Shown here one piece after another: positions 2,231-34,306 of a stretch of 64,000 bases of DNA (positions are counted from its first letter, which is position 1; each line of letters begins with the position of its first letter). The notes beneath the pieces are model-generated. The model did no database searches. It had not been told where the DNA came from and saw only the letters and a program-made list of their open reading frames with translations. Both the position numbers and the translations under genes were made by a program. Origin of the DNA: a virus; IMG/VR virus record IMGVR_UViG_3300045988_183986, one strand, 5' to 3'.

Positions 2231-3016
2231 TTAGCTATTTTCTTCGATGCACAATTCGCTGCTACGAATGTTTTCCAACCATTTTTCATCCATAACATTG
2301 CCAATACGATACTTCCTCTGGGATTCATAGGACCAGTCACAACCGACGACAACATCACCGATGGCATTCAGATACAGTTCTCCATCAGTGATATTGATTC
2401 CGGCTTCATTTCCCGGTTTACAATCTCTCTCATATTCAATCACAAGTTCCGAAACTATAGGTTCTCTCTTTAGAATCTGATTTGCGTTGATAGTTTTGGC
2501 ACGACCCTCGTTAATGAGATATTGCTTGCGAAAATCCGTTACTTTATCATTACGATTATATCTCAAACCGCTAAGAATACTCGCACTTTCGCGGGGAATT
2601 TCTTCATGAAAATCATCGCTGCTGATACAAAGACCACACGAATAGTCATCCTTGTCATCGCAATAATTCCACCATTCGAGGCTCGCCAAAGCGAGTTCTA
2701 CCATCTTATCGACGGCTTTCCCGTTGGTTACCATATAAAAACTCCCAACGGAAATGTTTCGCTCTCTTACGGCGTTCAAAGTATAGCGAATAGCAGGAAT
2801 GTTCAAAGAAATTTCTCCACCCGTAAAGGTCAAGGAACTGATGTATCCTGCATTAGCAAAACTGTCAAGAAACGCATCGATATATCTTTCCTGAATATCG
2901 ACCGCCTCCGCATCACCACGCAAACAATGCGCACAGCACATATTACAGCGACGGGTAATCTCAATTACCACATCACATGCACTCGAAATATACATTCTAT
3001 TTACTCCTTTCATCAA
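2231..3016 (-). CDS. radical SAM domain protein
   Basis: N-terminal CNMCCAHC (CxxxCxxC 4Fe-4S/SAM cluster motif) followed by a TFTGGE glycine-rich SAM motif. 261 aa. Confidence 0.7.
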   Translation of the reverse strand: MMKGVNRMYISSACDVVIEITRRCNMCCAHCLRGDAEAVDIQERYIDAFLDSFANAGYISSLTFTGGEISLNIPAIRYTLNAVRERNISVGSFYMVTNGKAVDKMVELALASLEWWNYCDDKDDYSCGLCISSDDFHEEIPRESASILSGLRYNRNDKVTDFRKQYLINEGRAKTINANQILKREPIVSELVIEYERDCKPGNEAGINITDGELYLNAIGDVVVGCDWSYESQRKYRIGNVMDEKWLENIRSSELCIEENS

Positions 3017-3346: not shown

Positions 3347-3802
3347 TCAGGCACAACGAACGCGAATGACATTATCATCATTCGACAAGCAAACAATCAC
3401 GTCCACATCCGGTCCCTCTTTCTCAAGAGCACCTTCAAGGATTGGCTTGATTTTGTGCCATTGATTTTCTGTGATTTTGCAGCCGGGGCTCATAAGCAGA
3501 ATATTTGCTTCGGCCAGCTTTGCTTTCATGACCACTTGTAGGAAACAACCGTATAGGTATCCGTAATTCACCTTGTTACTTTCAAGACAAATCATATCTG
3601 CTATTACGGTCCTTTTATTACCATAGCAGTTCACAACATGTCCCAAGTGATGTTCAGATTTGTCATACCGTACCTTGGCATCCGGAAACATGCTTTCAAT
3701 AGATTCGTTTTTGAAAACACCACTGCTATCACAAAAAACACAAACGATATTTTTGCCGGGAAACTCCTGACTTGATAAACAGCTTTTTGTCTTTTTTATC
3801 AA
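3347..3802 (-). CDS. hypothetical protein (151 aa), possible TTG start
   Basis: ORF track. Start codon at 3800-3802 is TTG with AGGA upstream. Preceded by class B promoter and leader hairpin. Confidence 0.45.
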   Translation of the reverse strand: MIKKTKSCLSSQEFPGKNIVCVFCDSSGVFKNESIESMFPDAKVRYDKSEHHLGHVVNCYGNKRTVIADMICLESNKVNYGYLYGCFLQVVMKAKLAEANILLMSPGCKITENQWHKIKPILEGALEKEGPDVDVIVCLSNDDNVIRVRCA

Positions 3803-3829
3803 TTTTTCTTCATCATCCTTTCGGCGATA

Positions 3830-3867
3830 ACAAAAAATACCGCCACCTCTTACGAGATAGCGGTATG
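3830..3867 (-). terminator. leader hairpin + T-run between class B promoter and gene start
   Basis: ATACCGC...GCGGTAT stem then TTTTTT on minus strand, ~30 nt before start codon. Confidence 0.4.
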
Positions 3868-3904
3868 TTGATTTTGAATTGTAATTGTATTTTATCTATC
3901 GAAT

Positions 3905-3940
3905 ATACTTAGTATATCGATTTTGCAGCAATTTGCAAGC
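3905..3940 (-). promoter_or_regulatory. class B promoter (TTGCAA-aTTGCTGCAAAAtcga-TATACT)
   Basis: Conserved spacer motif. Followed by leader hairpin/T-run at 3830..3867. Confidence 0.5.
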
Positions 3941-3995
3941 GCAGCTATTTAGTGGCGCTTCAACTTTTTCCGGGGGTTTTATTTTTTCGCTTTAC

Positions 3996-4793
3996 TTACA
4001 GCAAACTCATCTCTGCACGATACGCATTGGCGTCGTAGCCCCAGATATTACAAGCAAAATCGATTGCTGCGTTACCTTTGCTGGGATAACCGTCGTCAAC
4101 AAAATCTCCTTTGCAAAGCGCATACCAGCCACAATTACTTCCGATATCCTCATCCGCATATTTTACACGAATATTGGCGTGTGGGAATTTACGGCTCAGT
4201 TCGACAATGGCGCATGCAGGTGTATTCCAAGGGGTTTTAAAATTGATGGCAATTTCCGTATCATTTATTCTACGGATATTCACATCAAAAACATCCCACT
4301 TTACGCCCCAGTTTGCGACACGCCAATAATACCATGAAGCATATCCATATTTTACGGCATTTTCCAAAGCACGCTCCGCTACAGTATCGAACTCTTCGAC
4401 ATTATAGGGGATACGTTTCAGGTTGATGAGTTTGCTATCTTTCACGTGTTCCAGTTTGGAGCGAGCTTCCGCAGCTTCCTTGCAAACACCAACCATATCT
4501 GATGCAGTAAGTTTTTCCTTCCTGTGCAGGAGAAAAGTTTCTCTGCAAATAGCCTTTCTTACGTTTTCCGGATACTTCTCCGGGTCAATTCCGTATTTAT
4601 TTACGGCCGCCCATGCGAGCATCCTGTCACATGGCGATACGATTTGCAGTGATTCCGGCATAGGAACAACAGACTGAAGCGAAAAATCTTTTTCGCCATC
4701 ATCGTCTTTTCCCTTGACACGATTCAGAAAATCCTCCAACTCTGCCTGAGAATTGAAAGAAACAGACATGATATTCATGATATTGTTTGCCAT
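3996..4793 (-). CDS. DUF1281 / Api92-like ferredoxin-like domain protein (mobile-element associated)
   Basis: Motifs VANWGVKWDVFD and ACNIWGYDA resemble the NWGTKWD signature of the DUF1281/Api92-like family. 265 aa. Confidence 0.5.
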   Translation of the reverse strand: MANNIMNIMSVSFNSQAELEDFLNRVKGKDDDGEKDFSLQSVVPMPESLQIVSPCDRMLAWAAVNKYGIDPEKYPENVRKAICRETFLLHRKEKLTASDMVGVCKEAAEARSKLEHVKDSKLINLKRIPYNVEEFDTVAERALENAVKYGYASWYYWRVANWGVKWDVFDVNIRRINDTEIAINFKTPWNTPACAIVELSRKFPHANIRVKYADEDIGSNCGWYALCKGDFVDDGYPSKGNAAIDFACNIWGYDANAYRAEMSLL

Positions 4794-4810
4794 TTATTTT
4801 CTCCTTTGTC

Positions 4811-4999
4811 TTACGCGGGTACGCGTACGCAAGAATAGTGGCAAGCTCCACAATTCAGGAACTTTGCCCGCTTCATCGCCTCATCCAAGCTGAACCGCGT
4901 CGCTTCGTTAATGTTGGCAGTATCACTCTTACACTCTACGTAAAAACGCACATCTCCAAAAAACGGGTCTTTACGGCTTAGCGCATACATATTTTCCAA
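4811..4999 (-). CDS. small hypothetical protein (62 aa, Cys-containing)
   Basis: Short ORF in the gap between flanking minus-strand genes. CGACHYSC motif. Confidence 0.3.
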   Translation of the reverse strand: MENMYALSRKDPFFGDVRFYVECKSDTANINEATRFSLDEAMKRAKFLNCGACHYSCVRVPA

Positions 5000-5011
5000 A
5001 ATAAGTCCTCC

Positions 5012-5752
5012 TCAAATGTACCTCTCCCAGAACTTTTCGAATTCCTCGCTCGGCATCTGTGCTTCCGTTTCATCCAACAGTCTTTCGTAAGAATCACTGG
5101 AAACATCGGTGCCAATAAAATCGGCAACGGCATCATGACCGCGCTGCATCAAAGCGTCTTTCAGAATCGCCCAACGGCATTCGTGAATGGCATCATCCAG
5201 CGTTTTGTTGCCATCAGGCTGCCAATACTCGCCTGTCTGCTGAATTCTATAAAACTCATCCAGCGCATCATCAACATTGTTTTCGAGAAGAATATCGTCA
5301 ATAAAATTGACAGGATAATCCTTGCCGTTGATTTTCACTTCTGCATAACTGAAACAGTCGTCGTCACACGGCATTGCTGCGCATGTGACATCGAAAATCT
5401 CGTGCGTTTTCTTGTTTACCTTGCAAGGCAACTGAAATGTTGCTCCGGACTCGAAACAAGAAAAGACAACCGCTTCCTCAACATCGTTGTCGGGGCACTT
5501 TGCAGACTGGATAAATTCCGGCATGGACAGCACATCAATACTCTCCCTTCGGTCACCCATGGCAGGATAAACCTTCATGATTGTATAACCATCATGCTGC
5601 AGCTTTCGGATAGCACGGCACAGGTCGAGATGCATTTCATGAAGACTGATGCCACTGCCTCGTCCGTCTTTTTTGGTATAGATTTCGACAACTACATCTT
5701 CAGAGGTGGTCTGAACAACATAATAAGTCTTATCATTACAAATCTTAAACAT
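5012..5752 (-). CDS. hypothetical protein
   Basis: ORF 5012..5773. Likely start MFKICNDK with GAGGGAG upstream. Confidence 0.5.
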   Translation of the reverse strand: MFKICNDKTYYVVQTTSEDVVVEIYTKKDGRGSGISLHEMHLDLCRAIRKLQHDGYTIMKVYPAMGDRRESIDVLSMPEFIQSAKCPDNDVEEAVVFSCFESGATFQLPCKVNKKTHEIFDVTCAAMPCDDDCFSYAEVKINGKDYPVNFIDDILLENNVDDALDEFYRIQQTGEYWQPDGNKTLDDAIHECRWAILKDALMQRGHDAVADFIGTDVSSDSYERLLDETEAQMPSEEFEKFWERYI

Positions 5753-5773
5753 AGCACTTATCTCCCTTCTCAA

Positions 5774-5971
5774 TCAAACAAAAGCCAGAAAATCGTTGGC
5801 CGGAATCTGTCGCTGGGCATCGTAAGCGGTGCCGTAGACATCATCACCCCAACTGATTTGCACATCCTTCGTCCACAGAGCAAGCTCAGACATTTTTGCT
5901 GCCACGGCTTTTGCGGAGCTGCAGATATACTTCTTGACGGCGTTGTTTTCTTTTACGTTAATTGTAAACAT
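5774..5971 (-). CDS. small hypothetical protein (~65 aa)
   Basis: ORF 5774..6028. Likely start MFTINVKENN preceded by AGGAGG, immediately after the leader terminator. Confidence 0.4.
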   Translation of the reverse strand: MFTINVKENNAVKKYICSSAKAVAAKMSELALWTKDVQISWGDDVYGTAYDAQRQIPANDFLAFV

Positions 5972-5992
5972 TTCAATTTCCTCCTTAACACA

Positions 5993-6026
5993 ACAAAAAA
6001 ACAGCCATCTCGATTGAGATGGCTGC
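5993..6026 (-). terminator. leader terminator (hairpin + T7) directly upstream of RBS
   Basis: CAGCCATCTCaatcGAGATGGCTG + TTTTTTT on minus strand, between promoter 6085..6120 and start at 5971. Confidence 0.55.
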
Positions 6027-6084
6027 ACGAACAGATTTTGAACTAAAACAAGTCAAGGAATTGATACTTTGATTTATCTTAGTT

Positions 6085-6120
6085 CCTTAATTATATCTAC
6101 TTTGCAGCAATTGACAAGAT
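6085..6120 (-). promoter_or_regulatory. class B promoter (TTGTCA-aTTGCTGCAAAGtaga-TATAAT)
   Basis: Conserved spacer motif. Confidence 0.5.
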
Positions 6121-6147
6121 AGCCACAACAGGAATGCAACATCGTAT

Positions 6148-6369
6148 TCACGGTACTTTTTCAACGACATCTTCACCGTAAACCACGAACAGACCAGAGC
6201 CGTTATCCCAGCGAACCATGATACTGCCGGTATCGTCTATACCTGAAACTGTGCCGAGTGTTCCAATAGGTGGAGCCTGAATATCATCCATTTTCAGCAG
6301 TTTCACGCGTGTTCCGGCTGGATATTCGGCACGGAGCGCAGCGACGATTTCTCGATTTGGGAAAGTCAT
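6148..6369 (-). CDS. DUF4314 domain protein
   Basis: 73 aa; LLKMDDIQAPPIGTLGTVSGIDDTGSIMVRWDNGSGL matches the DUF4314 pattern common in Firmicutes conjugative elements. Confidence 0.6.
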   Translation of the reverse strand: MTFPNREIVAALRAEYPAGTRVKLLKMDDIQAPPIGTLGTVSGIDDTGSIMVRWDNGSGLFVVYGEDVVEKVP

Positions 6370-6385
6370 AAATGTACCTCGCTTC

Positions 6386-6934
6386 TTAATATGTCACGGT
6401 GTCAAAGAACTCCTGACATTCCTCATCGTTCAACACAACGCCAAAGTACGCAACACGCTCGACGGTGGTTTCCCACACCTTAACGGTACGCGTCATAGGC
6501 TGAACGACCCACGAATGCTGTCGCCAAAGGCCATCTTCACTTAAAGCGTACCCGGTTGCAATCTGACATCTGCCACGATTTGCATCCCACAGATAAGCAG
6601 CGTTCTGATGGCAACGACAATCTTCGCCCTTCTTCATATATTTGGAACCATAGAAGAACTGTCCTCGTTCCAGAACTTTTTCCGCATCCTCATCACGGGT
6701 ATTGAGCAAAACCTCATCACCGCCGAAAGTTAAAATTCTATCACGCAGAGCACGCAAAGTTTTTTTCATTTCGTTTGTGAGCCAAGGCGCGGTGGCGTCC
6801 TCGTTGTACAGCTGCATTGCCTCTACTCGTTTTTTCCATTCCTTATCCATTGGATTCCAGCGGACAGGGTTCGCAACCATATCAGGAGAGGTCATGGGCG
6901 TTTTGGCATTCCAACTAAATTTCTTATTTGCCAT
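6386..6934 (-). CDS. hypothetical protein
   Basis: ORF 6386..6955. Likely start MANKKFSW. Confidence 0.45.
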   Translation of the reverse strand: MANKKFSWNAKTPMTSPDMVANPVRWNPMDKEWKKRVEAMQLYNEDATAPWLTNEMKKTLRALRDRILTFGGDEVLLNTRDEDAEKVLERGQFFYGSKYMKKGEDCRCHQNAAYLWDANRGRCQIATGYALSEDGLWRQHSWVVQPMTRTVKVWETTVERVAYFGVVLNDEECQEFFDTVTY

Positions 6935-6993
6935 TATAATACTCCTTTTCAACAAAACCGCTTACCTTTTTCAGGTAAGCGGTTATATTTTGA

Positions 6994-7662
6994 TTATGCG
7001 AGCATGGGATATATTTCTTTCTTTACCGCCCTCATAAGAGCGGCAGCATGTGCGGCGTTTTGTGCATTGCCAACACCTGCGCGAGATATTTTTGGATTCA
7101 CACGCTCAATGAAATTTTTCTTATACGGGGCAGAAATGCTCCTTGCAGCATCGATAATTTGTTTCATGTTTTCAGCGTCGATTTTTTGCTGAACGCATAA
7201 TTTTTGTAACCGTGTGCAAAAAGCGTCTTTGTTGTCCCGTACAGAAGTAGAATGATTTTTTGTTTCTTTATGTGGGATGACTGCCTCACAGGCTATCCGT
7301 TTAACGCTTAACCCTTTACTGCACATGGTCTGAATAAGCCCGTCATATCCCTTGTCTGCCGACACGATGATATAATTGCTTTTCTTTCCTGTTGTGCAAA
7401 GACTACCAAGTTTAGCAACAACGTGGAAATCCATGCTGTTTTTCCCTGCATTAGAGACGCAGAACTCTACTTGGTTGACTGGGTACTTTGCCAGAAAAAC
7501 CTGCAATTCTTTAAGTGACATGTATGTGGCTTCCGGACCGATGAAGATAATCAGCTTGTCCTTTTTGGTTTTAAAATGCACTACATTTAGCCATTTCTTT
7601 TGGACATTCTCGGTATCTATTAGCCAAACGGTTCGAGTGCAGCTCACACATTTCACCCCCAC
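6994..7662 (-). CDS. NYN/LabA-like (PIN-like) domain protein
   Basis: VWLIDTENV near the N-terminus and IIVSADKGYDGLIQ later resemble the D...SxDxD acidic residues of LabA/NYN nucleases. Confidence 0.45.
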   Translation of the reverse strand: MGVKCVSCTRTVWLIDTENVQKKWLNVVHFKTKKDKLIIFIGPEATYMSLKELQVFLAKYPVNQVEFCVSNAGKNSMDFHVVAKLGSLCTTGKKSNYIIVSADKGYDGLIQTMCSKGLSVKRIACEAVIPHKETKNHSTSVRDNKDAFCTRLQKLCVQQKIDAENMKQIIDAARSISAPYKKNFIERVNPKISRAGVGNAQNAAHAAALMRAVKKEIYPMLA

Positions 7663-7949
7663 ACTTCGGTGACTTTTCTGGGGATTCCGTGCTTGTCGAT
7701 TTTCCGTCGATAAATCGTGAATTTGCTCTTGGGATGAGCATTCACATAATCGTTTCTTGCGACATCGGTGTTCGCAATCAACAGATTTTTATCGGCAATA
7801 AGAACGCTTTCCCATCCGGAATCGAGAAGCGTACTGGCAACATCCTTGAAAGATACGTCTGCAGGCGTATCGCACTTACAAACCCCTCGTGCGATAGGAT
7901 GCGCAGTGGCAATGATTTTTGCTGCCGTCATCACAGTCTCGTAACTCAT
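7653..7949 (-). CDS. hypothetical protein (98 aa)
   Basis: ORF track, co-oriented, tightly packed. Confidence 0.4.
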   Translation of the reverse strand: MSYETVMTAAKIIATAHPIARGVCKCDTPADVSFKDVASTLLDSGWESVLIADKNLLIANTDVARNDYVNAHPKSKFTIYRRKIDKHGIPRKVTEVWG

Positions 7950-7961
7950 AGTGTCCTCCTA

Positions 7962-8219
7962 TCACGCCACCTCGAAATACTTTTCGACATCGCTGTTGAT
8001 AGAACGCGCAGGAACACCCTTGGTCTTCTCACTGTAGTAGCCACGCTTTTTCAGCGTGTTCTTAACAATAGAAATGCTCTTGTCGCTGCGCATGGTACGC
8101 TTTCTCTTTTCGATGCGTGCAGAACGAATGCGCTTTTCGTACTTCTGCATACGAACAGCGTCCATAATGATAGGAGCAGTAGTCTCCGCGACATACTCGT
8201 TAAAAGTTTTCATGTTCAC
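7962..8219 (-). CDS. hypothetical protein (85 aa, basic)
   Basis: ORF track. RBS GGAGGA upstream. Preceded by class B promoter and leader terminator. Confidence 0.4.
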   Translation of the reverse strand: MNMKTFNEYVAETTAPIIMDAVRMQKYEKRIRSARIEKRKRTMRSDKSISIVKNTLKKRGYYSEKTKGVPARSINSDVEKYFEVA

Positions 8220-8239
8220 ATATCCTCCGTAATATATTA

Positions 8240-8276
8240 TTTTTCTAAATAAAAAAGGCAGCTATTTTCTCAAAAA
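8240..8276 (-). terminator. leader terminator upstream of 7962..8219
   Basis: GGTAGCTATTTTTgagAAAAATAGCTGCC + TTTTTT on minus strand, ~95 nt downstream of class B promoter, ~20 nt before start. Confidence 0.5.
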
Positions 8277-8371
8277 TAGCTACCTTTAGTACATTGTGAT
8301 TGGCGATAATTCAATCATGCACGCCCACAAAACTCTGGTACGATGCATTGTGTGATTTTATTTATCGGATA

Positions 8372-8406
8372 ACTATATATTATTAACTTTGCAGCAATTT
8401 GCAAGT
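8372..8406 (-). promoter_or_regulatory. class B promoter (TTGCAA-aTTGCTGCAAAGttaa-TAATAT)
   Basis: Conserved spacer motif. Flanked by terminators on both sides. Confidence 0.5.
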
Positions 8407-8415
8407 ACAGGATAC

Positions 8416-8452
8416 AATAAAAGCGCCTCCCGTATTACGGGGAAGCGCCTTA
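8416..8452 (-). terminator. rho-independent terminator after membrane protein gene
   Basis: GGCGCTTCCCCGtaataCGGGAGGCGCT + TTTT on minus strand. Confidence 0.55.
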
Positions 8453-8459
8453 GTGTTAT

Positions 8460-9059
8460 TTATTCTTTGTTATCCGAAGAAATTTTCGGAGACTTCTTCT
8501 TCTCAACGAAAGCATCAATCGTTCGGCCGAAACGATTAAGAAGCATTGCGCCAAGATAAAGAATGATGCCGCTAATCATGATACCAACATCAAGCGTCTC
8601 AAATCCTGCGAAACTCTTGCAATAAATAGAACTGACTGCGAGAGCGCCAAGCGTTGGCAGCGAAGCAATCGTTACCGTAAGTGCCGCATACACAACACTA
8701 TTCAGAACAGTACCAATACTTGCAATGATGCCGCGCTTTTTAAATGTGCGCTGCTTATCGTAGGACATCTGATAAGCCCCGATAAGACTTGGTTCACGAA
8801 TAATGTCGCGCAGATGCAGCAGGCACCACGCCAAAACAGCACACCCGATGCCGCAGCCGACCTTATAGGCACTCATGCGAGAACCCCACAGGTCATTTGC
8901 GTTGGCGGGAACGACGAACGCCAGAATGTTGAACAGGACGGCAAACAAGACGAACATTGCCATGTGGGGATTCTTGGCATTGTTGCGAGCCTCGTTCTTT
9001 GCCTTACTGGCGACTTCCTCGGTCTGATTGTGAATTTTTACATTGAGAATCTTTTCCAT
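8460..9059 (-). CDS. membrane protein, hypothetical
   Basis: 199 aa with 4-5 hydrophobic segments. RBS AAAGGAAAGG upstream. Confidence 0.5.
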   Translation of the reverse strand: MEKILNVKIHNQTEEVASKAKNEARNNAKNPHMAMFVLFAVLFNILAFVVPANANDLWGSRMSAYKVGCGIGCAVLAWCLLHLRDIIREPSLIGAYQMSYDKQRTFKKRGIIASIGTVLNSVVYAALTVTIASLPTLGALAVSSIYCKSFAGFETLDVGIMISGIILYLGAMLLNRFGRTIDAFVEKKKSPKISSDNKE

Positions 9060-9104
9060 TTTTTTACCTTTCCTTTCGTGTGGACGATTTAGTTGTAAAT
9101 CGTT

Positions 9105-9422
9105 TTAATCTCTGTGATAGCGTTGCATCATACCGAACATAGCCGCAAGCGCCAATGCAAGGTAGATGTAAGTGTATCCCTTTTCAATCATGTTCAGAAT
9201 CACGATGGTAAAGCTCGAAAAAGCACCACAATAAAAAGCGGCACCAAGTTTATCGACCAAAAACATCAACATCTGGGCAACGACTGCCGCAGGAACAAGA
9301 AGCTTGAGACGCTTGGCCTCAATGATTCCGTCCCAGTCAAGAACAGCAATGAAGCTGGCTCCCATGCAGATGACCCAAACAAAAGCGAAAATAAGGGTTG
9401 CTGTGTCAAAAAAGTTACTCAT
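9105..9422 (-). CDS. small multi-TM membrane protein, paralog A
   Basis: ORF 9105..9437. Start MSNFFDTA with GGAGGT. Paralogous to 9478..9792; 3' ends share the nucleotide block atctgtgatagcg. Confidence 0.5.
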   Translation of the reverse strand: MSNFFDTATLIFAFVWVICMGASFIAVLDWDGIIEAKRLKLLVPAAVVAQMLMFLVDKLGAAFYCGAFSSFTIVILNMIEKGYTYIYLALALAAMFGMMQRYHRD

Positions 9423-9477
9423 ATCAGTTACCTCCAAAATTACTGATGGTTTACGGGTTTATGGACATCGAATCGCA

Positions 9478-9792
9478 TTATCTGTGATAGCGCTTTGTCA
9501 TGCCAAACATAGCTGCAATCATAATCGCCAAATATGCGTACAAATACAAGTTCTCAATCATTCCAAGAACTGAAATTGTAAGACTGGCGAACATACCGCA
9601 ATACAGAACAGCACCAATTTTTTTGATGATGAACAGCGTGGCTTGCGCAATGATGGCGACAACGAGAAAAACTTTGATGTATTTAGCCTCAAATAAACCA
9701 TCCCAATCGATGGCAAGGAAGATACAAGCCCCCACAGCGAGAGCCCAAACCAAAGCAGCAACAGATGCAACAGCGTCAAAGAAGCTTAACAT
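9478..9792 (-). CDS. small multi-TM membrane protein, paralog B
   Basis: ORF 9478..9807. Start MLSFFDAV. LAIDWDGLFEAKYIK matches AVLDWDGIIEAKRLK in the paralog. Confidence 0.5.
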   Translation of the reverse strand: MLSFFDAVASVAALVWALAVGACIFLAIDWDGLFEAKYIKVFLVVAIIAQATLFIIKKIGAVLYCGMFASLTISVLGMIENLYLYAYLAIMIAAMFGMTKRYHR

Positions 9793-9845
9793 AGCGAATA
9801 CCTCCATGTTTTAAATTAGGTTAATGTTCGGACATCTATATAAAC

Positions 9846-9883
9846 AGCAAAAAGCCGCCAATGGGACAATCCACTGGCGGCTC
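9846..9883 (-). terminator. leader terminator upstream of small membrane paralogs
   Basis: AGCCGCCAGTGGattgtcCCATTGGCGGCT + TTTTT on minus strand. Confidence 0.5.
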
Positions 9884-9929
9884 AGTTGCCGATTGCAATA
9901 ATACAGTTAAATCATTTGATTTATGTTAT

Positions 9930-9965
9930 GTCTCAATTATATTAACTTCGCAGCATAATGCAAGA
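9930..9965 (-). promoter_or_regulatory. class B promoter (TTGCAT-tATGCTGCGAAGttaa-TATAAT)
   Basis: Variant of conserved spacer, immediately after sortase stop. Confidence 0.45.
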
Positions 9966-9971
9966 GCTTTT

Positions 9972-10943
9972 TCAGAAGACTTCGTCAAGTTTTGCACATA
10001 CAATAAAACGAGTATCGTAATTATCACTGCCTGAACAGGTGGACAAAATCAAAACCTTATCATTCAATCCAACTTCTGTGGCGTACTGATTGTAAGAGTA
10101 AGCTTTCATACTTGCAATCTCTGTCAGAAAATACGAATCATCCGGATTCGCAATGGTATAACTTGGGTCAATAGGATAATCGGCAACAGCAAAGATTTTC
10201 CATCGTGTCTGTTGTTCACCCAGAGTAAGATAAATATACCGATGTTCTTTTGCAAAGTTGACATCGCGGAAGTATTTCAAAACACTGAATTTCTTGTGCA
10301 TACTGTTTCCGTTGCTATGTCCAAAAATAACAGTTACTCTGTACATATCATCAACATTGCTGACATTCCATTCGGAGGGAACAAAATAAGCGCCCCAGAT
10401 ACTTTCCCTATCGAACTCATTGTGAGTCAGATAATAATCATCGTCTGTGGGATGCTGCAAAATTGGCTCATCTGTAACATCAACGCCGGGAACAGTTAAG
10501 TAACCAACGGTGTTTTTGGAATACGCTGGCTTTGGTGTCGGTTCCGGTTCTGAATCACTCTCACTTGAATTAGAAGACGGGATAAGAATCGAGGGAGTAG
10601 AAACAGGTTCTTCTACATCATCGGAGATGTTTCCTGTCTCATATGCAGGGATATGATAGTAATCATACGCTTTCCATCCAATATAGCCAATCATGGCAAT
10701 AAGAACGATGCAGATTACGACCAACAAAACTGTCCAGATGGAAAATCGCCGTTTCTCTTTGTCCTCTGACGCGTCCATCGCATCCATCGATTCATTGTCA
10801 TCCTCGTCATGACTTGCCTTTTGATGAGGGAAGTTTTCACCAGTTCCATCATCCTCATCATTTGGAATGTAATTGTACGCACCAAGTTCCTGCTCGAAAT
10901 GTTCTTCTTCAGGCAGTGGTGGAATAATAGGTGTTTTTGCCAT
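9972..10943 (-). CDS. srtB: class B sortase
   Basis: N-terminal TM anchor. Conserved His in IFGHSNGNS, catalytic Cys in LILSTCSGSD (TLxTC-like), Arg in YDTRFIVCAKL. Confidence 0.7.
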   Translation of the reverse strand: MAKTPIIPPLPEEEHFEQELGAYNYIPNDEDDGTGENFPHQKASHDEDDNESMDAMDASEDKEKRRFSIWTVLLVVICIVLIAMIGYIGWKAYDYYHIPAYETGNISDDVEEPVSTPSILIPSSNSSESDSEPEPTPKPAYSKNTVGYLTVPGVDVTDEPILQHPTDDDYYLTHNEFDRESIWGAYFVPSEWNVSNVDDMYRVTVIFGHSNGNSMHKKFSVLKYFRDVNFAKEHRYIYLTLGEQQTRWKIFAVADYPIDPSYTIANPDDSYFLTEIASMKAYSYNQYATEVGLNDKVLILSTCSGSDNYDTRFIVCAKLDEVF

Positions 10944-12132: not shown

Positions 12133-12170
12133 TAAAAAGACCCCGGCAGACAGGTTGCCTACCGGGGCAG
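12133..12170 (-). terminator. GC-rich hairpin + T-run after secE-like gene
   Basis: CCCCGG...CCGGGG stem followed by TTTTT, then RBS of lipoprotein gene. Confidence 0.45.
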
Positions 12171-12692: not shown

Positions 12693-14033
12693 TCAATTCA
12701 AGAAACCCTTGTGATGGCGAACCACCAAATGGCTGTTAAGAGAATCGATAACTTCAAGCGTAACACCTGTGACAATCAACAGACTGGTACCGCCAAAGTG
12801 CATATTCAGACCTGTAACCGCAGTTGCCAAGATAGGCACACATGCAATAACCGAAAGAACAAATGCTCCCGAACCGGCGAGAGAATGGCAAGCATTGCGC
12901 AAATAATCACTGGTAGCTTTGCCTGCTCGAATACCGGGGATACTGCCGCCGTTCTTGCGCAGGTTGTTTGCCATTTCGATGGGGTCGAATGTGATGTCGA
13001 TGTAGAATAAGTTGAATGCGAAAATCAGGGCTACATACGCAACATCATAAATCCAATTCCGCGAATTCCAAGATGCCAGCGCCATATACAGGCTGGGGTG
13101 CTTGTTGTAATCGAGGAACATCGTCACGAGAGACGGCATACTGCAAATGGTGGACGAGAAAATAATAGGCATAACACCCGACATAATCAGTTTGATGGGG
13201 ATATAACTGGACTGACCAGTGGATGCTTTGTTCCCTACATTTTTACCGGCATACTGAACAGGAACGCGGCGCTCTGCATCGCTTGCGAAAACGACATAGA
13301 AGGTGGCCACCAAAACAAAGAGGATGACGCCGGGAATCATCAGATAATACCACCATCCATTTTCTTTGCCCATTGCAATAGAGTTCTGGAACAACGAGAT
13401 GACAGCATCCCATCTGGAAATGATACCGGTAAAGATGATAAGGGAAATACCGTTGCCAATACCTTTTTCGTCAATCAGCCATCCAAGCCAGATGACGATT
13501 TGAGAACCAGCAGTCAGAATGGCAATAACAGTAATGGCTTCCACGACCTGCGAAATGCCGGAAGTGTATTTCATCGCACCGTAGTTCTTCATAATAAAGA
13601 AGTACCCGATAGCTGTTACGACCGCCAAACCACAACCAACATACTGCGTGATTTTATTGATTTGCTTCTGCCCGCCGATGTCCTTGCTGATTTCTTCCAG
13701 TTTCGGAATCGCAACAGTCAAAAGCTGGATGATGATGCTTGCGTTGATGTATGCAGATACGCCAATCGCAAATACCGCACACTGAGAAAGTGCGCCACCG
13801 GAAACCAGATTGTAATAATCCAGTACAGAGGTGCTTCCGAACATAGTCTGAAGCGCAGCGGTGTTTACGAACGGAATCGTAATACCGCAACCCAGACGAT
13901 AAATCAGAAGACAAAGGATGGTGAAGAGAATCTTGTTGCGAACATCATCCACCATCAGCTTCTGAAAGATGGTGCTGTTCGAATAAGACTTTTTGAGTTT
14001 CGGCTTTTTCGCCGGATTTTTAATGTTGTCCAA
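12693..14033 (-). CDS. secY: preprotein translocase SecY paralog
   Basis: 446 aa, 10 TM. ILFTILCLLIYRLGCGITIPFVN...SGGALSQCAVFAIGVSAYINASIIIQLL is the canonical SecY N-terminal signature. Not flanked by ribosomal-protein/adk genes. Confidence 0.85.
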   Translation of the reverse strand: MDNIKNPAKKPKLKKSYSNSTIFQKLMVDDVRNKILFTILCLLIYRLGCGITIPFVNTAALQTMFGSTSVLDYYNLVSGGALSQCAVFAIGVSAYINASIIIQLLTVAIPKLEEISKDIGGQKQINKITQYVGCGLAVVTAIGYFFIMKNYGAMKYTSGISQVVEAITVIAILTAGSQIVIWLGWLIDEKGIGNGISLIIFTGIISRWDAVISLFQNSIAMGKENGWWYYLMIPGVILFVLVATFYVVFASDAERRVPVQYAGKNVGNKASTGQSSYIPIKLIMSGVMPIIFSSTICSMPSLVTMFLDYNKHPSLYMALASWNSRNWIYDVAYVALIFAFNLFYIDITFDPIEMANNLRKNGGSIPGIRAGKATSDYLRNACHSLAGSGAFVLSVIACVPILATAVTGLNMHFGGTSLLIVTGVTLEVIDSLNSHLVVRHHKGFLN

Positions 14034-28952: not shown

Positions 28953-29036
28953 GATTTAACCCTCACTCTAAATACGGCAAAAAGGCCATGCGCTCTATTT
29001 CTTATAAGAAATGGCGGTATGGCCTGTTTGCCTCGC

Positions 29037-34271: not shown

Positions 34272-34306
34272 CTTTTATTGTATCTACTTTGCAGCAAATA
34301 GCAAAG
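34272..34306 (-). promoter_or_regulatory. class B promoter (TTGCTA-tTTGCTGCAAAGtaga-TACAAT)
   Basis: Contains the conserved TTGCTGCAAAG spacer. Overlaps upstream terminator. Confidence 0.5.

Follow-up and report, generated by a model that had tools for sequence, protein, structure and literature searches.

Layout of the W1–W4 intergenic regions

The DNA examined here is a stretch of 64,000 nucleotides (nt), IMG/VR virus record IMGVR_UViG_3300045988_183986 (the window, at its full length), which on its gene set we assign to 'Hodor', a conjugative megaplasmid of human-gut Bacillota. All long open reading frames (ORFs) in the window lie on the minus strand, and its features are therefore read on that strand, with coordinates in plus-strand numbering. 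Four of its intergenic regions (W1–W4, Table 1) share a single layout, in which a −35 hexamer TTGCnn, a spacer with the near-invariant 12-nt core TTGCTGCAAAGT and a −10 hexamer TAtAaT are followed by a leader, a hairpin with a U-run, a Shine–Dalgarno (SD) sequence and a start codon. We refer to promoters of the form TTGC-N7-TGCAAA-N5-TAnnnT, with core TTGCTGCAAAGT, as class B. Six of them occur in the window, and four, those of W1–W4, are followed by a strong terminator within the leader. Transcription start sites (TSSs) are predicted throughout, being placed at a conserved A 7 nt past the −10.

Measured from the −10, the hairpins of W1 to W4 begin after 44, 63, 89 and 46 nt and end after 74, 89, 123 and 89 nt; their U-runs stop about 27, 22, 28–34 and 54 nt short of the start codon, and the predicted terminated RNAs are about 75, 90, 123 and 83 nt long. 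All four have the GC-rich stem and U-tract of an intrinsic terminator (11–15 bp, free energy of folding (dG) −17.5 to −28.2 kcal/mol, U5–U7). They are among the eight best of 34 terminator-like sites found between 1 and 20 kb, where shuffled sequences yield 17.9 ± 3.5. The W2 hairpin recurs in relatives with identical sequence and a U-run of 6–8. At W4 the −35 starts only 9 nt past the stop codon of the gene at 9972–10943.

An earlier note on this DNA had described the order promoter, short leader, intrinsic terminator, ribosome-binding site (RBS) at four class B promoters, and mapping of hairpins and promoters bears this out. Three of its hairpin intervals are exact; the remaining one, 8240–8276 for the W3 hairpin, sits about 10 nt off and cuts away the 5′ arm. 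Its figure of 5–30 nt from hairpin end to start codon is right for three of them but not for W4 (54 nt). The separate terminator that it had placed before the promoter in the 8.2–8.45 kb interval is present (8449–8422, dG −18.1); as this hairpin precedes the W3 promoter, terminators flank that promoter on both sides.

Table 1. Promoters, leaders, terminators and selected genes of the window, with ORFs from sister-lineage contigs (L numbers) at the end. P1, helix formed by the leader box and its downstream complement.
Feature	Coordinates	Strand	Details
W1 promoter	3911..3938	minus	−35 TTGCAA 3938-3933; core TTGCTGCAAAAT 3931-3920; −10 TATACT 3916-3911
W1 leader, ~75 nt	3830..3904	minus	predicted TSS, A at 3904
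W1 leader elements	3903-3889; 3878-3870	minus	box TTCGATAGATAAAAT; motif TTCAAAATC
W1 terminator	stem 3866-3837	minus	13 bp, dG −20.4; U-run 3836-3830
W1 downstream signals	3820-3816; 3802	minus	SD; TTG start
W2 promoter	6090..6117	minus	−35 TTGTCA 6117-6112; core TTGCTGCAAAGT 6110-6099; −10 TATAAT 6095-6090
W2 leader, ~90 nt (flagged feature)	5994..6083	minus	predicted TSS, A at 6083
W2 leader elements	6081-6072; 6042-6034	minus	−10-like box TAAGATAAAT; motif TTCAAAATC; P1 helix GAACUAAG/UUUUAGUUC
W2 terminator	stem 6026-6001	minus	11 bp, dG −18.9; U7 at 6000-5994
W2 downstream signals	5986-5980; 5971	minus	SD; ATG
W3 promoter	8377..8404	minus	−35 TTGCAA 8404-8399; core TTGCTGCAAAGT 8397-8386; −10 TAATAT 8382-8377
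W3 leader, ~123 nt	8248..8370	minus	predicted TSS, A at 8370; box TCCGATAAATAAAAT
W3 terminator	stem 8287-8254	minus	15 bp, dG −17.5; U-run 8253-8248
W3 downstream signals	8228-8224; 8219 or 8213	minus	SD; start GTG (8219) or ATG (8213)
Ordinary terminator of upstream 199-aa gene, ahead of W3 promoter	8420..8451	minus	stem 8449-8422; dG −18.1
W4 promoter	9936..9963	minus	−35 TTGCAT 9963-9958; core ATGCTGCGAAGT 9956-9945; −10 TATAAT 9941-9936
W4 leader, ~83 nt	9847..9929	minus	predicted TSS, A at 9929
W4 leader elements	9898-9891 (motif)	minus	box TAACATAAATCA; motif TTGCAATC
W4 terminator	stem 9883-9852	minus	13 bp, 8 GC; U-run 9851-9847; extended stem 9889-9847, dG −28.2
W4 downstream signals	9805-9801; 9792	minus	SD; ATG
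W5 class B promoter	34277..34304	minus	no leader terminator; terminator 34337-34313 upstream; RBS directly after
W6 class B promoter	44291-44264	minus	254-nt leader, weak hairpin 44185-44143 (dG −12.8)
Class A-like promoter after W6 leader	44119-44091	minus	precedes 2672-aa MBG-domain gene
Class A promoters	35911-35883, 34957-34929, 33072-33044, 31155-31127, 18559-18531, 15645-15617	minus	
Terminator inside W3 operon	6957..6983	minus	dG −18.5; directly before RBS of 189-aa gene; no promoter between
Terminator between secE and trigger-factor-like gene	12140..12168	minus	U-run abuts RBS
Terminator after Dam methylase gene	28983..29025	minus	directly before next RBS
SecY	12693-14033	minus	Pfam
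6523-aa ORF, cut by window end	63945-44374	minus	then terminator 44360-44331
TnpB/IS605-like ORFs (by eye)	L306:3777-4919, L407:3418-4560, L311:5601-6818, L370:9412-10893		

Class B units in related elements

Relatives were collected by scanning IMG/VR with the core motif, which returned contigs of 143–346 kb carrying several copies each. Together with the window they gave 30 distinct class B units, in a search that required TTG at the −35 and TAnnnT at the −10. A leader terminator follows the promoter in 25 of these 30 units as against 0 of 8 class A promoters (Fisher p = 2.6e-5), class A being a second promoter family with a conserved extended −10 (TTGACn-N12/13-TGTGGTATAAT-ATA). Among the class B units the leader hairpins begin 42–103 nt past the −10 and typically end 22–35 nt before the start codon. 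All 25 have the makings of an intrinsic terminator (8–22 bp, dG −10.9 to −28.5), and their sequences are diverse, so that selection would act on the hairpin rather than on its sequence; about half have in common the inner stem GC(C/U)AUCUC-tetraloop-GAGAUGGC, in which the loops vary.

A rival to the regulated antitermination that we favour below is that the leader hairpins are constitutive attenuators and insulators: leaky terminators without a dedicated factor, which both close the upstream operon and hold the output of near-consensus promoters at a low, fixed level. We regard this as the main rival, though an unlikely one. In W1, W2 and W4 the leader hairpin is indeed the first terminator past the upstream stop codon, as insulation would have it. 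A second terminator lies ahead of the promoter in seven or eight class B units, however (3, 7, 10, 13, 17, 19 and 27 by number), and there the leader hairpin is not needed to end the upstream operon. Nor is it easy to see, short of a regulatory purpose, why the terminator should stand after the promoter in 25 of 30 class B units and just before it in 7 of 8 distinct class A copies. The long GC-rich stems with U5–U7 fit the profile of efficient terminators, not leaky ones, and the conserved leader elements described in the next section accompany the terminator. The view of the earlier note that these are not merely terminators of upstream genes is thus upheld, both by the units with an extra terminator and by the 22–35 nt before the start codon, which leave no room for a promoter. 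Its idea of a regulon likewise agrees with a layout that is limited to one promoter class and kept as a family in related elements.

A simple sigma-70 scan finds about as many sites overall as in shuffled sequence, as might be the case if the class B motif were not a promoter but, for example, a protein-binding site, with ordinary terminators beside it and the real promoters elsewhere. We find this barely credible. Two good hexamers stand at a fixed spacing of 16 nt around a core whose variation stays well below the three mismatches allowed, and 26 of 30 units have an A 7 nt past the −10, although the invariance of the hexamers themselves was imposed by the search. The motif is confined to intergenic DNA and always oriented into genes, no promoter fits after the U-run, and the units lacking a leader hairpin include four that lead directly to the RBS. 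A palindromic operator across the −35 (TTGCA-N6-TGCAA) was considered and rejected, as it is not conserved between units. Scanning 185,579 species genomes with the motif gave scattered single chance matches and no host or chromosomal regulon.

In the relatives, thyX, an nrdD-like gene and a 5′-nucleotidase gene are among the genes driven by class B units. Genes for dCMP deaminase and an NAD-ligase are also found in related loci, and the set as a whole resembles phage early or plasmid establishment genes.

Conserved elements of the leader

The leaders of the window lineage begin with a conserved box at +1 to +11, A-U-n-n-G-A-U-A-A-A-U, which may also be written UGUACGAUAGAUA. At the DNA level it contains a −10-like hexamer 8 nt past the −10, which reads TAAGAT in nine window-lineage units (W2, where it lies at about +2 to +7, and eight others); the hexamer of W4 is TAACAT, and those of W2 and W4 both lie 7–8 nt past the −10. 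Further down, 10–20 nt ahead of the hairpin, a TTCAAAATC-like motif is found that is absent from ordinary terminators (p = 0.004, with units that are not independent). Box and motif (TTCAAAATC/TTCACAAT) go together with the terminator. A downstream complement pairs with the box in about ten units to form a helix, P1 (e.g. AUAUAAGAUAAA/UUUAUCUUAUAU, ACUAAGAUAA/UUAUCUUAAU and GAACUAAG/UUUUAGUUC), with compensatory differences between units; P1 is lacking in the short units, W1 among them.

Two other explanations of the leader were set aside. A leader peptide was rejected, the leaders being 40–90 nt long and devoid of an RBS, and a single-stranded-DNA promoter of the Frpo type was dropped on inspection, as the helices involve the leader and not the −35 and −10 hexamers.

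A sister lineage with a second leader type

Contigs of a sister lineage, with a SecY 90% identical, have no TTGCTGCAAAGT core and carry TTGC-N6-GTGCGAA-N5-TAnAAT in its place. When both lineages are aligned on the −10, a common skeleton emerges, TTGC-N7-TGC(A/G)AA-N5-TAnnnT, with TGCRAA in identical register. A scan with this skeleton gave 99 distinct matches, some of them by chance, of which 52 have a leader terminator, with the hairpin at a fixed +61 to +75 in 39. The order within these leaders is strongly conserved: nnUGUACGAUAGAUA(A/C)CA, a variable hairpin, UCGUACAAUUCACAAU..., a terminator (GGCGGACUUCC... or GCAGACUC...) and a U-run. The −10-like hexamer is here TACGAT, present in 29 of the 52 units with a terminator compared with 7 of the 47 without. 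Large ORFs, of TnpB/IS605 type by eye, stand directly behind terminator-less GTGCGAA-type promoters.

Pairing in the terminator helix of the sister leaders reaches 95%, and 8 of the 11 pairs have changed in a compensatory way. Their P1 (UGUACGA/UCGUACA) is 80% paired and mostly invariant, but some variants keep it through multiple compensatory changes (e.g. UGUAUAAUAGAU/AUCUGUUAUACA). When a covariance model of the sister leader (R1) was run over both strands of the whole window, W2, W3 and W1 ranked first, second and third (E = 0.04–0.2; W2 the best match at E = 0.039), ahead of the ordinary terminators. This supports the view that the window and sister leader types are homologous.

That the sister RNA keeps its 5′ helix and a constant length of about 100 nt might also be expected if the cassettes were primarily small RNA (sRNA) genes, whose products of 75–125 nt, running from a conserved box at the 5′ end through a variable 'seed' in the middle to the terminator hairpin, would act in trans or as decoys, with downstream expression as incidental read-through. 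It would suit such genes that each cassette is a self-contained promoter–RNA–terminator unit of about 110 bp found at many intergenic sites, that copies are alike only up to the cassette borders, and that the middle segment varies where box, motif and hairpin are kept. We nevertheless consider the idea improbable: every cassette is directed into the gene that follows and stops just before its RBS, and the downstream operons (thyX, the nrdD-like gene, the nucleotidase and others) have no other promoter.

Folding of the leaders

The earlier note had raised the possibility of attenuation by an RNA switch and had suggested looking for alternative antiterminator structures. In the window lineage, folding does not bear out either. 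Forbidding the 3′ arm of the terminator costs 14–28 kcal/mol (ddG), no less than in shuffled leaders (mean z = +0.49); in nascent-RNA folds, pairing between the 5′ arm and the leader falls below that of shuffles (56 nt vs 95 expected); and no significance was reached in a permutation test on a short helix following the AAUC motif (p = 0.2). Window-lineage leaders encode no competing antiterminator fold, and structures of this kind were rejected on all three counts: an attenuator or riboswitch would have an exclusive fold of comparable stability that sequesters the 5′ arm of the terminator, and none was found there. Searches against Rfam 15 gave no match at gathering score in the window (over 3700–10100, noise only at E up to 5), and no leader match in five sister-lineage loci.

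The sister lineage is where a riboswitch-like element, or an attenuator dependent on a protein or antisense RNA, with an alternative pairing that blocks the terminator, has something to be said for it. The linker (UUCGC or UCUGU) can pair over 5–7 bp with the start of the terminator's 5′ arm (GCGGA or GCAGA) in 24 of 32 leaders against 5.2 expected, and the resulting helix is seen in nascent-RNA folds; in some variants UCUGU also pairs with the 5′ box, which gives a 1:2 / 2:3 / 3:4 topology, and leader attenuators of zipper type are used by plasmids of the pLS20 family. This helix is, however, far weaker than the terminator of 11–16 bp, and what covariation it shows comes down to two subfamilies, in effect a single event. 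Together with the negative results from the window lineage and from Rfam, this makes an RNA switch highly improbable.

Neighbouring genes and the identity of the element

The class B operons at 1–10 kb (2231–3016, 3996–4793, 6148–6369 and 6994–7662, minus strand) encode small accessory proteins, namely a radical SAM protein, a DUF1281_C/Api92-like protein, a DUF4314 protein and a PIN7 nuclease. Behind the W4 leader come two ORFs of 110 and 109 aa (amino acids), at 9105–9437 and 9478–9807, and then the 199-aa ORF at 8460–9059, all on the minus strand. The gene for a 2672-aa protein with MBG (YGX; MBG_2) domains has tandem promoters, class B and then class A-like (44291–44009).

Besides SecY and this protein, Pfam identifies SecE, an FKBP/trigger-factor-like protein, a ParM/Alp7A-like actin, Dam and flotillin in the window; SecG gives a weak match below threshold (18.4 bits, cut-off 29.2). 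The GC content of the window is 0.40–0.52. Hodor plasmids are distinguished by a SecYGE, trigger factor and sortase module, giant surface proteins with MBG domains (>7300 and ~2640 aa), ParM, ~45% GC and an origin in the human gut, where they are widespread and uncultured, having been detected in 9349 samples with 1625 draft genomes reconstructed (PMC12934698). The 6523-aa ORF, truncated where the window stops, presumably corresponds to the Hodor surface protein of >7300 aa. The words 'promoter', 'terminator' and 'antitermin' are absent from the text of the Hodor preprint (PMC12934698).

According to the same preprint, such plasmids have been misfiled as huge phages (PMC12934698). The nearest contigs to the window are IMG/VR records of 241–346 kb, SecY being 99% identical in three, and its closest relatives are filed as viral there (e.g. 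IMGVR_UViG_3300023499_000220, 346 kb, and 3300045988_181067, 389 kb). This filing agrees with the preprint's point, given the partition and secretion genes and the lack of an informative PHROG match. None of 20 window proteins had an informative PHROG match, and a phage identity was rejected in preference to a Hodor megaplasmid. Megablast of 1–20 kb against phage and plasmid collections returned no match. No tRNA genes lie within the window; a Hodor-like contig of the sister lineage carries an array of at least 11 (L316:1778-3425).

Obligatory read-through and a candidate antitermination regulon

Since the space from U-run to start codon is too short for a promoter, expression of the genes behind a leader terminator requires read-through. 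The same holds beyond the class B leaders, as three compact terminators inside operons (Table 1) have a U-run that abuts the next RBS and no promoter in between, which implies that read-through is obligatory there too. Terminators directly before an RBS are what one would expect if polymerase had been made processively terminator-resistant. With leaders that have no competing fold, a trans-acting factor is the most economical route to regulated read-through.

We therefore propose, at a probability of roughly 0.45, that premature termination is the default at these units, and that a factor encoded by the plasmid relieves it after loading at the promoter or the leader. A conserved cassette of about 110 bp heads most class B transcription units, the flagged hairpins being its terminators. 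It consists of a promoter of housekeeping-sigma type with the TGCRAA core at a fixed register in the spacer; an initially transcribed box (TAAGAT in W2); a variable segment, often closed by P1 pairing of the box; and an efficient intrinsic terminator whose U-run ends about 20–35 nt before the start codon. By default, polymerase would make an RNA of 75–125 nt and stop, and the downstream genes, having no other promoter, would be expressed by read-through alone. The putative trans-acting factor, encoded by the plasmid, would render polymerase terminator-resistant, loading either through the promoter-spacer element and early box, as lambda Q and AlpA do, or through the 5′ leader RNA, as with nut, put and LoaP; polymerase so modified may also pass the terminators inside operons. 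More tentatively, the cassettes may form a replicon-wide antitermination regulon, in which dozens of qut-like copies per plasmid, each yielding an RNA of ~100 nt alone, would silence most accessory and DNA-metabolism operons until the factor loads at TGCRAA and the 5′ box and turns the polymerase of the host terminator-resistant.

Several observations weigh against this proposal. Box and terminator are missing from five of the 30 window-lineage core promoters (W6 included) and from up to half of the raw sister-lineage matches, so the core can act without a leader and may be, for instance, a plain operator. Agreement with the −10-like hexamer is incomplete: W1 (TTCGAT) and W3 (TCCGAT) have no critical A at position 2, and only 9 of 25 window-lineage units match T[AT]nGAT strictly. 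Some sister variants lose the hexamer and keep P1 by compensation (e.g. TGCATAACAGAT/ATCTGTCATGC), which argues for a role of the box at the RNA level. Two of the three internal terminators (12168–12140 and 29025–28983) lie in class A operons, and read-through is thus not tied to class B initiation. Finally, Pfam was searched with about 170 proteins, namely those of 45 ORFs in the window and 115 further clusters (about 155 protein clusters of this lineage), together with 10 that stand first behind terminator-less promoters. Over this set, which covers about 45% of a 346-kb plasmid and ORFs of at least 70 aa outside the window, no Q, AlpA, NusG/KOW, sigma, ANTAR or CAT-RBD protein was found. 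The earlier note had suggested a search for a NusG paralogue or an RNA-binding antiterminator gene on the element, and among these proteins none was found; sequence searches of five small proteins against the PDB also gave no match.

These last results also suit constitutive attenuation. On that account the internal terminators would likewise set expression steps within operons, which would explain why pre-RBS terminators occur in class A operons too, and no antitermination factor would be called for. The Hodor preprint gives secYGE and tig–sortase as separate co-transcribed sets, which fits such a step at 12168–12140 (PMC12934698). We still favour regulated antitermination.

A promoter class with a terminator at the head of nearly all its units would amount to a master switch for a large share of the plasmid's genes, one that may plausibly control how the plasmid establishes itself after transfer or how much it costs its host. 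Were a promoter-loaded antiterminator to be involved, control of the Q/AlpA kind would extend from single phage operons to a whole replicon of about 350 kb in a Gram-positive setting, with more than 100 natural variant sites for dissecting the rules of loading. As compact (~110 bp), insulated promoter modules, the cassettes may be useful in the synthetic biology of Bacillota. The sister-lineage leader, for its part, is a candidate new RNA family.

Comparison with known antitermination systems

It is a little short of an even bet that the Hodor system works like promoter-proximal antitermination of the Q/AlpA or the nut/put/LoaP type. Q and AlpA require a binding element between the −35 and −10 and, early in the transcribed stretch, a −10-like sequence, which for AlpA is CACGAT (PMC9371919). 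The Hodor cassettes resemble both systems (Q, PR′-qut-tR′ with 6S RNA; AlpA, PalpB-tB) in having a conserved, putatively factor-binding element between −35 and −10; an early-transcribed −10-like hexamer as a candidate sigma-dependent pause element (TAAGAT/TACGAT, against CACGAT for AlpA); and an intrinsic terminator shortly downstream, ahead of the regulated genes, with a short RNA as the predicted default product. They differ in that there are dozens of promoters per Hodor replicon instead of one, on a plasmid of Bacillota and not a phage. The part of a plasmid that was inspected, about 45%, yielded no protein of the Q or AlpA family; in many units the hexamer falls short of a full match, the box is also engaged in a covarying P1 helix, and the core also stands on terminator-less promoters. 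With no such protein found there and a pause element that agrees only in part, we do not file the Hodor system as a member of the Q/AlpA group.

Processive antitermination is known from Gram-positive conjugative elements, namely conAn of pLS20 (PMC8191782) and canT of Tn916. With conAn and the zipper-type attenuator of the pLS20 family (PMC8191782, PMC13401043) the Hodor system shares a Gram-positive conjugative plasmid, a leader terminator combined with terminators inside operons, and a logic of suppressing spurious or premature transcription. However, conAn is bipartite, with a ConAn1 protein and a large conAn2 RNA that lies within a 315–383-bp region and occurs once, at the head of a single 32-kb conjugation operon (PMC8191782), whereas the Hodor cassettes stand at many operons, mostly of DNA-metabolism or unknown genes. 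The pLS20 leader is 456 nt long and has a long-stem antiterminator; Hodor leaders are 40–90 nt and have no competing fold.

Tn916 canT/T1 and HK022 put offer a parallel in their promoter-close element before the first terminator, their insulating effect and their action in cis, which is proposed for Hodor. As far as a comparison by description goes, put consists of two defined stem-loops of about 70 nt, while many Hodor leaders (W1 and other short ones) are unstructured and A/U-rich ahead of the terminator. The NusG paralogues LoaP and RfaH, of which LoaP is known in Bacillota, are similar in that a conserved leader element before terminators recruits a processivity factor, as may be the case here; they differ in having one or few loading sites and not many, and no NusG/KOW protein was found in the inspected part of the plasmid. 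What sets the Hodor cassettes apart from all described cases is their copy number, their host and type of element, and a conserved, partly structured leader RNA.

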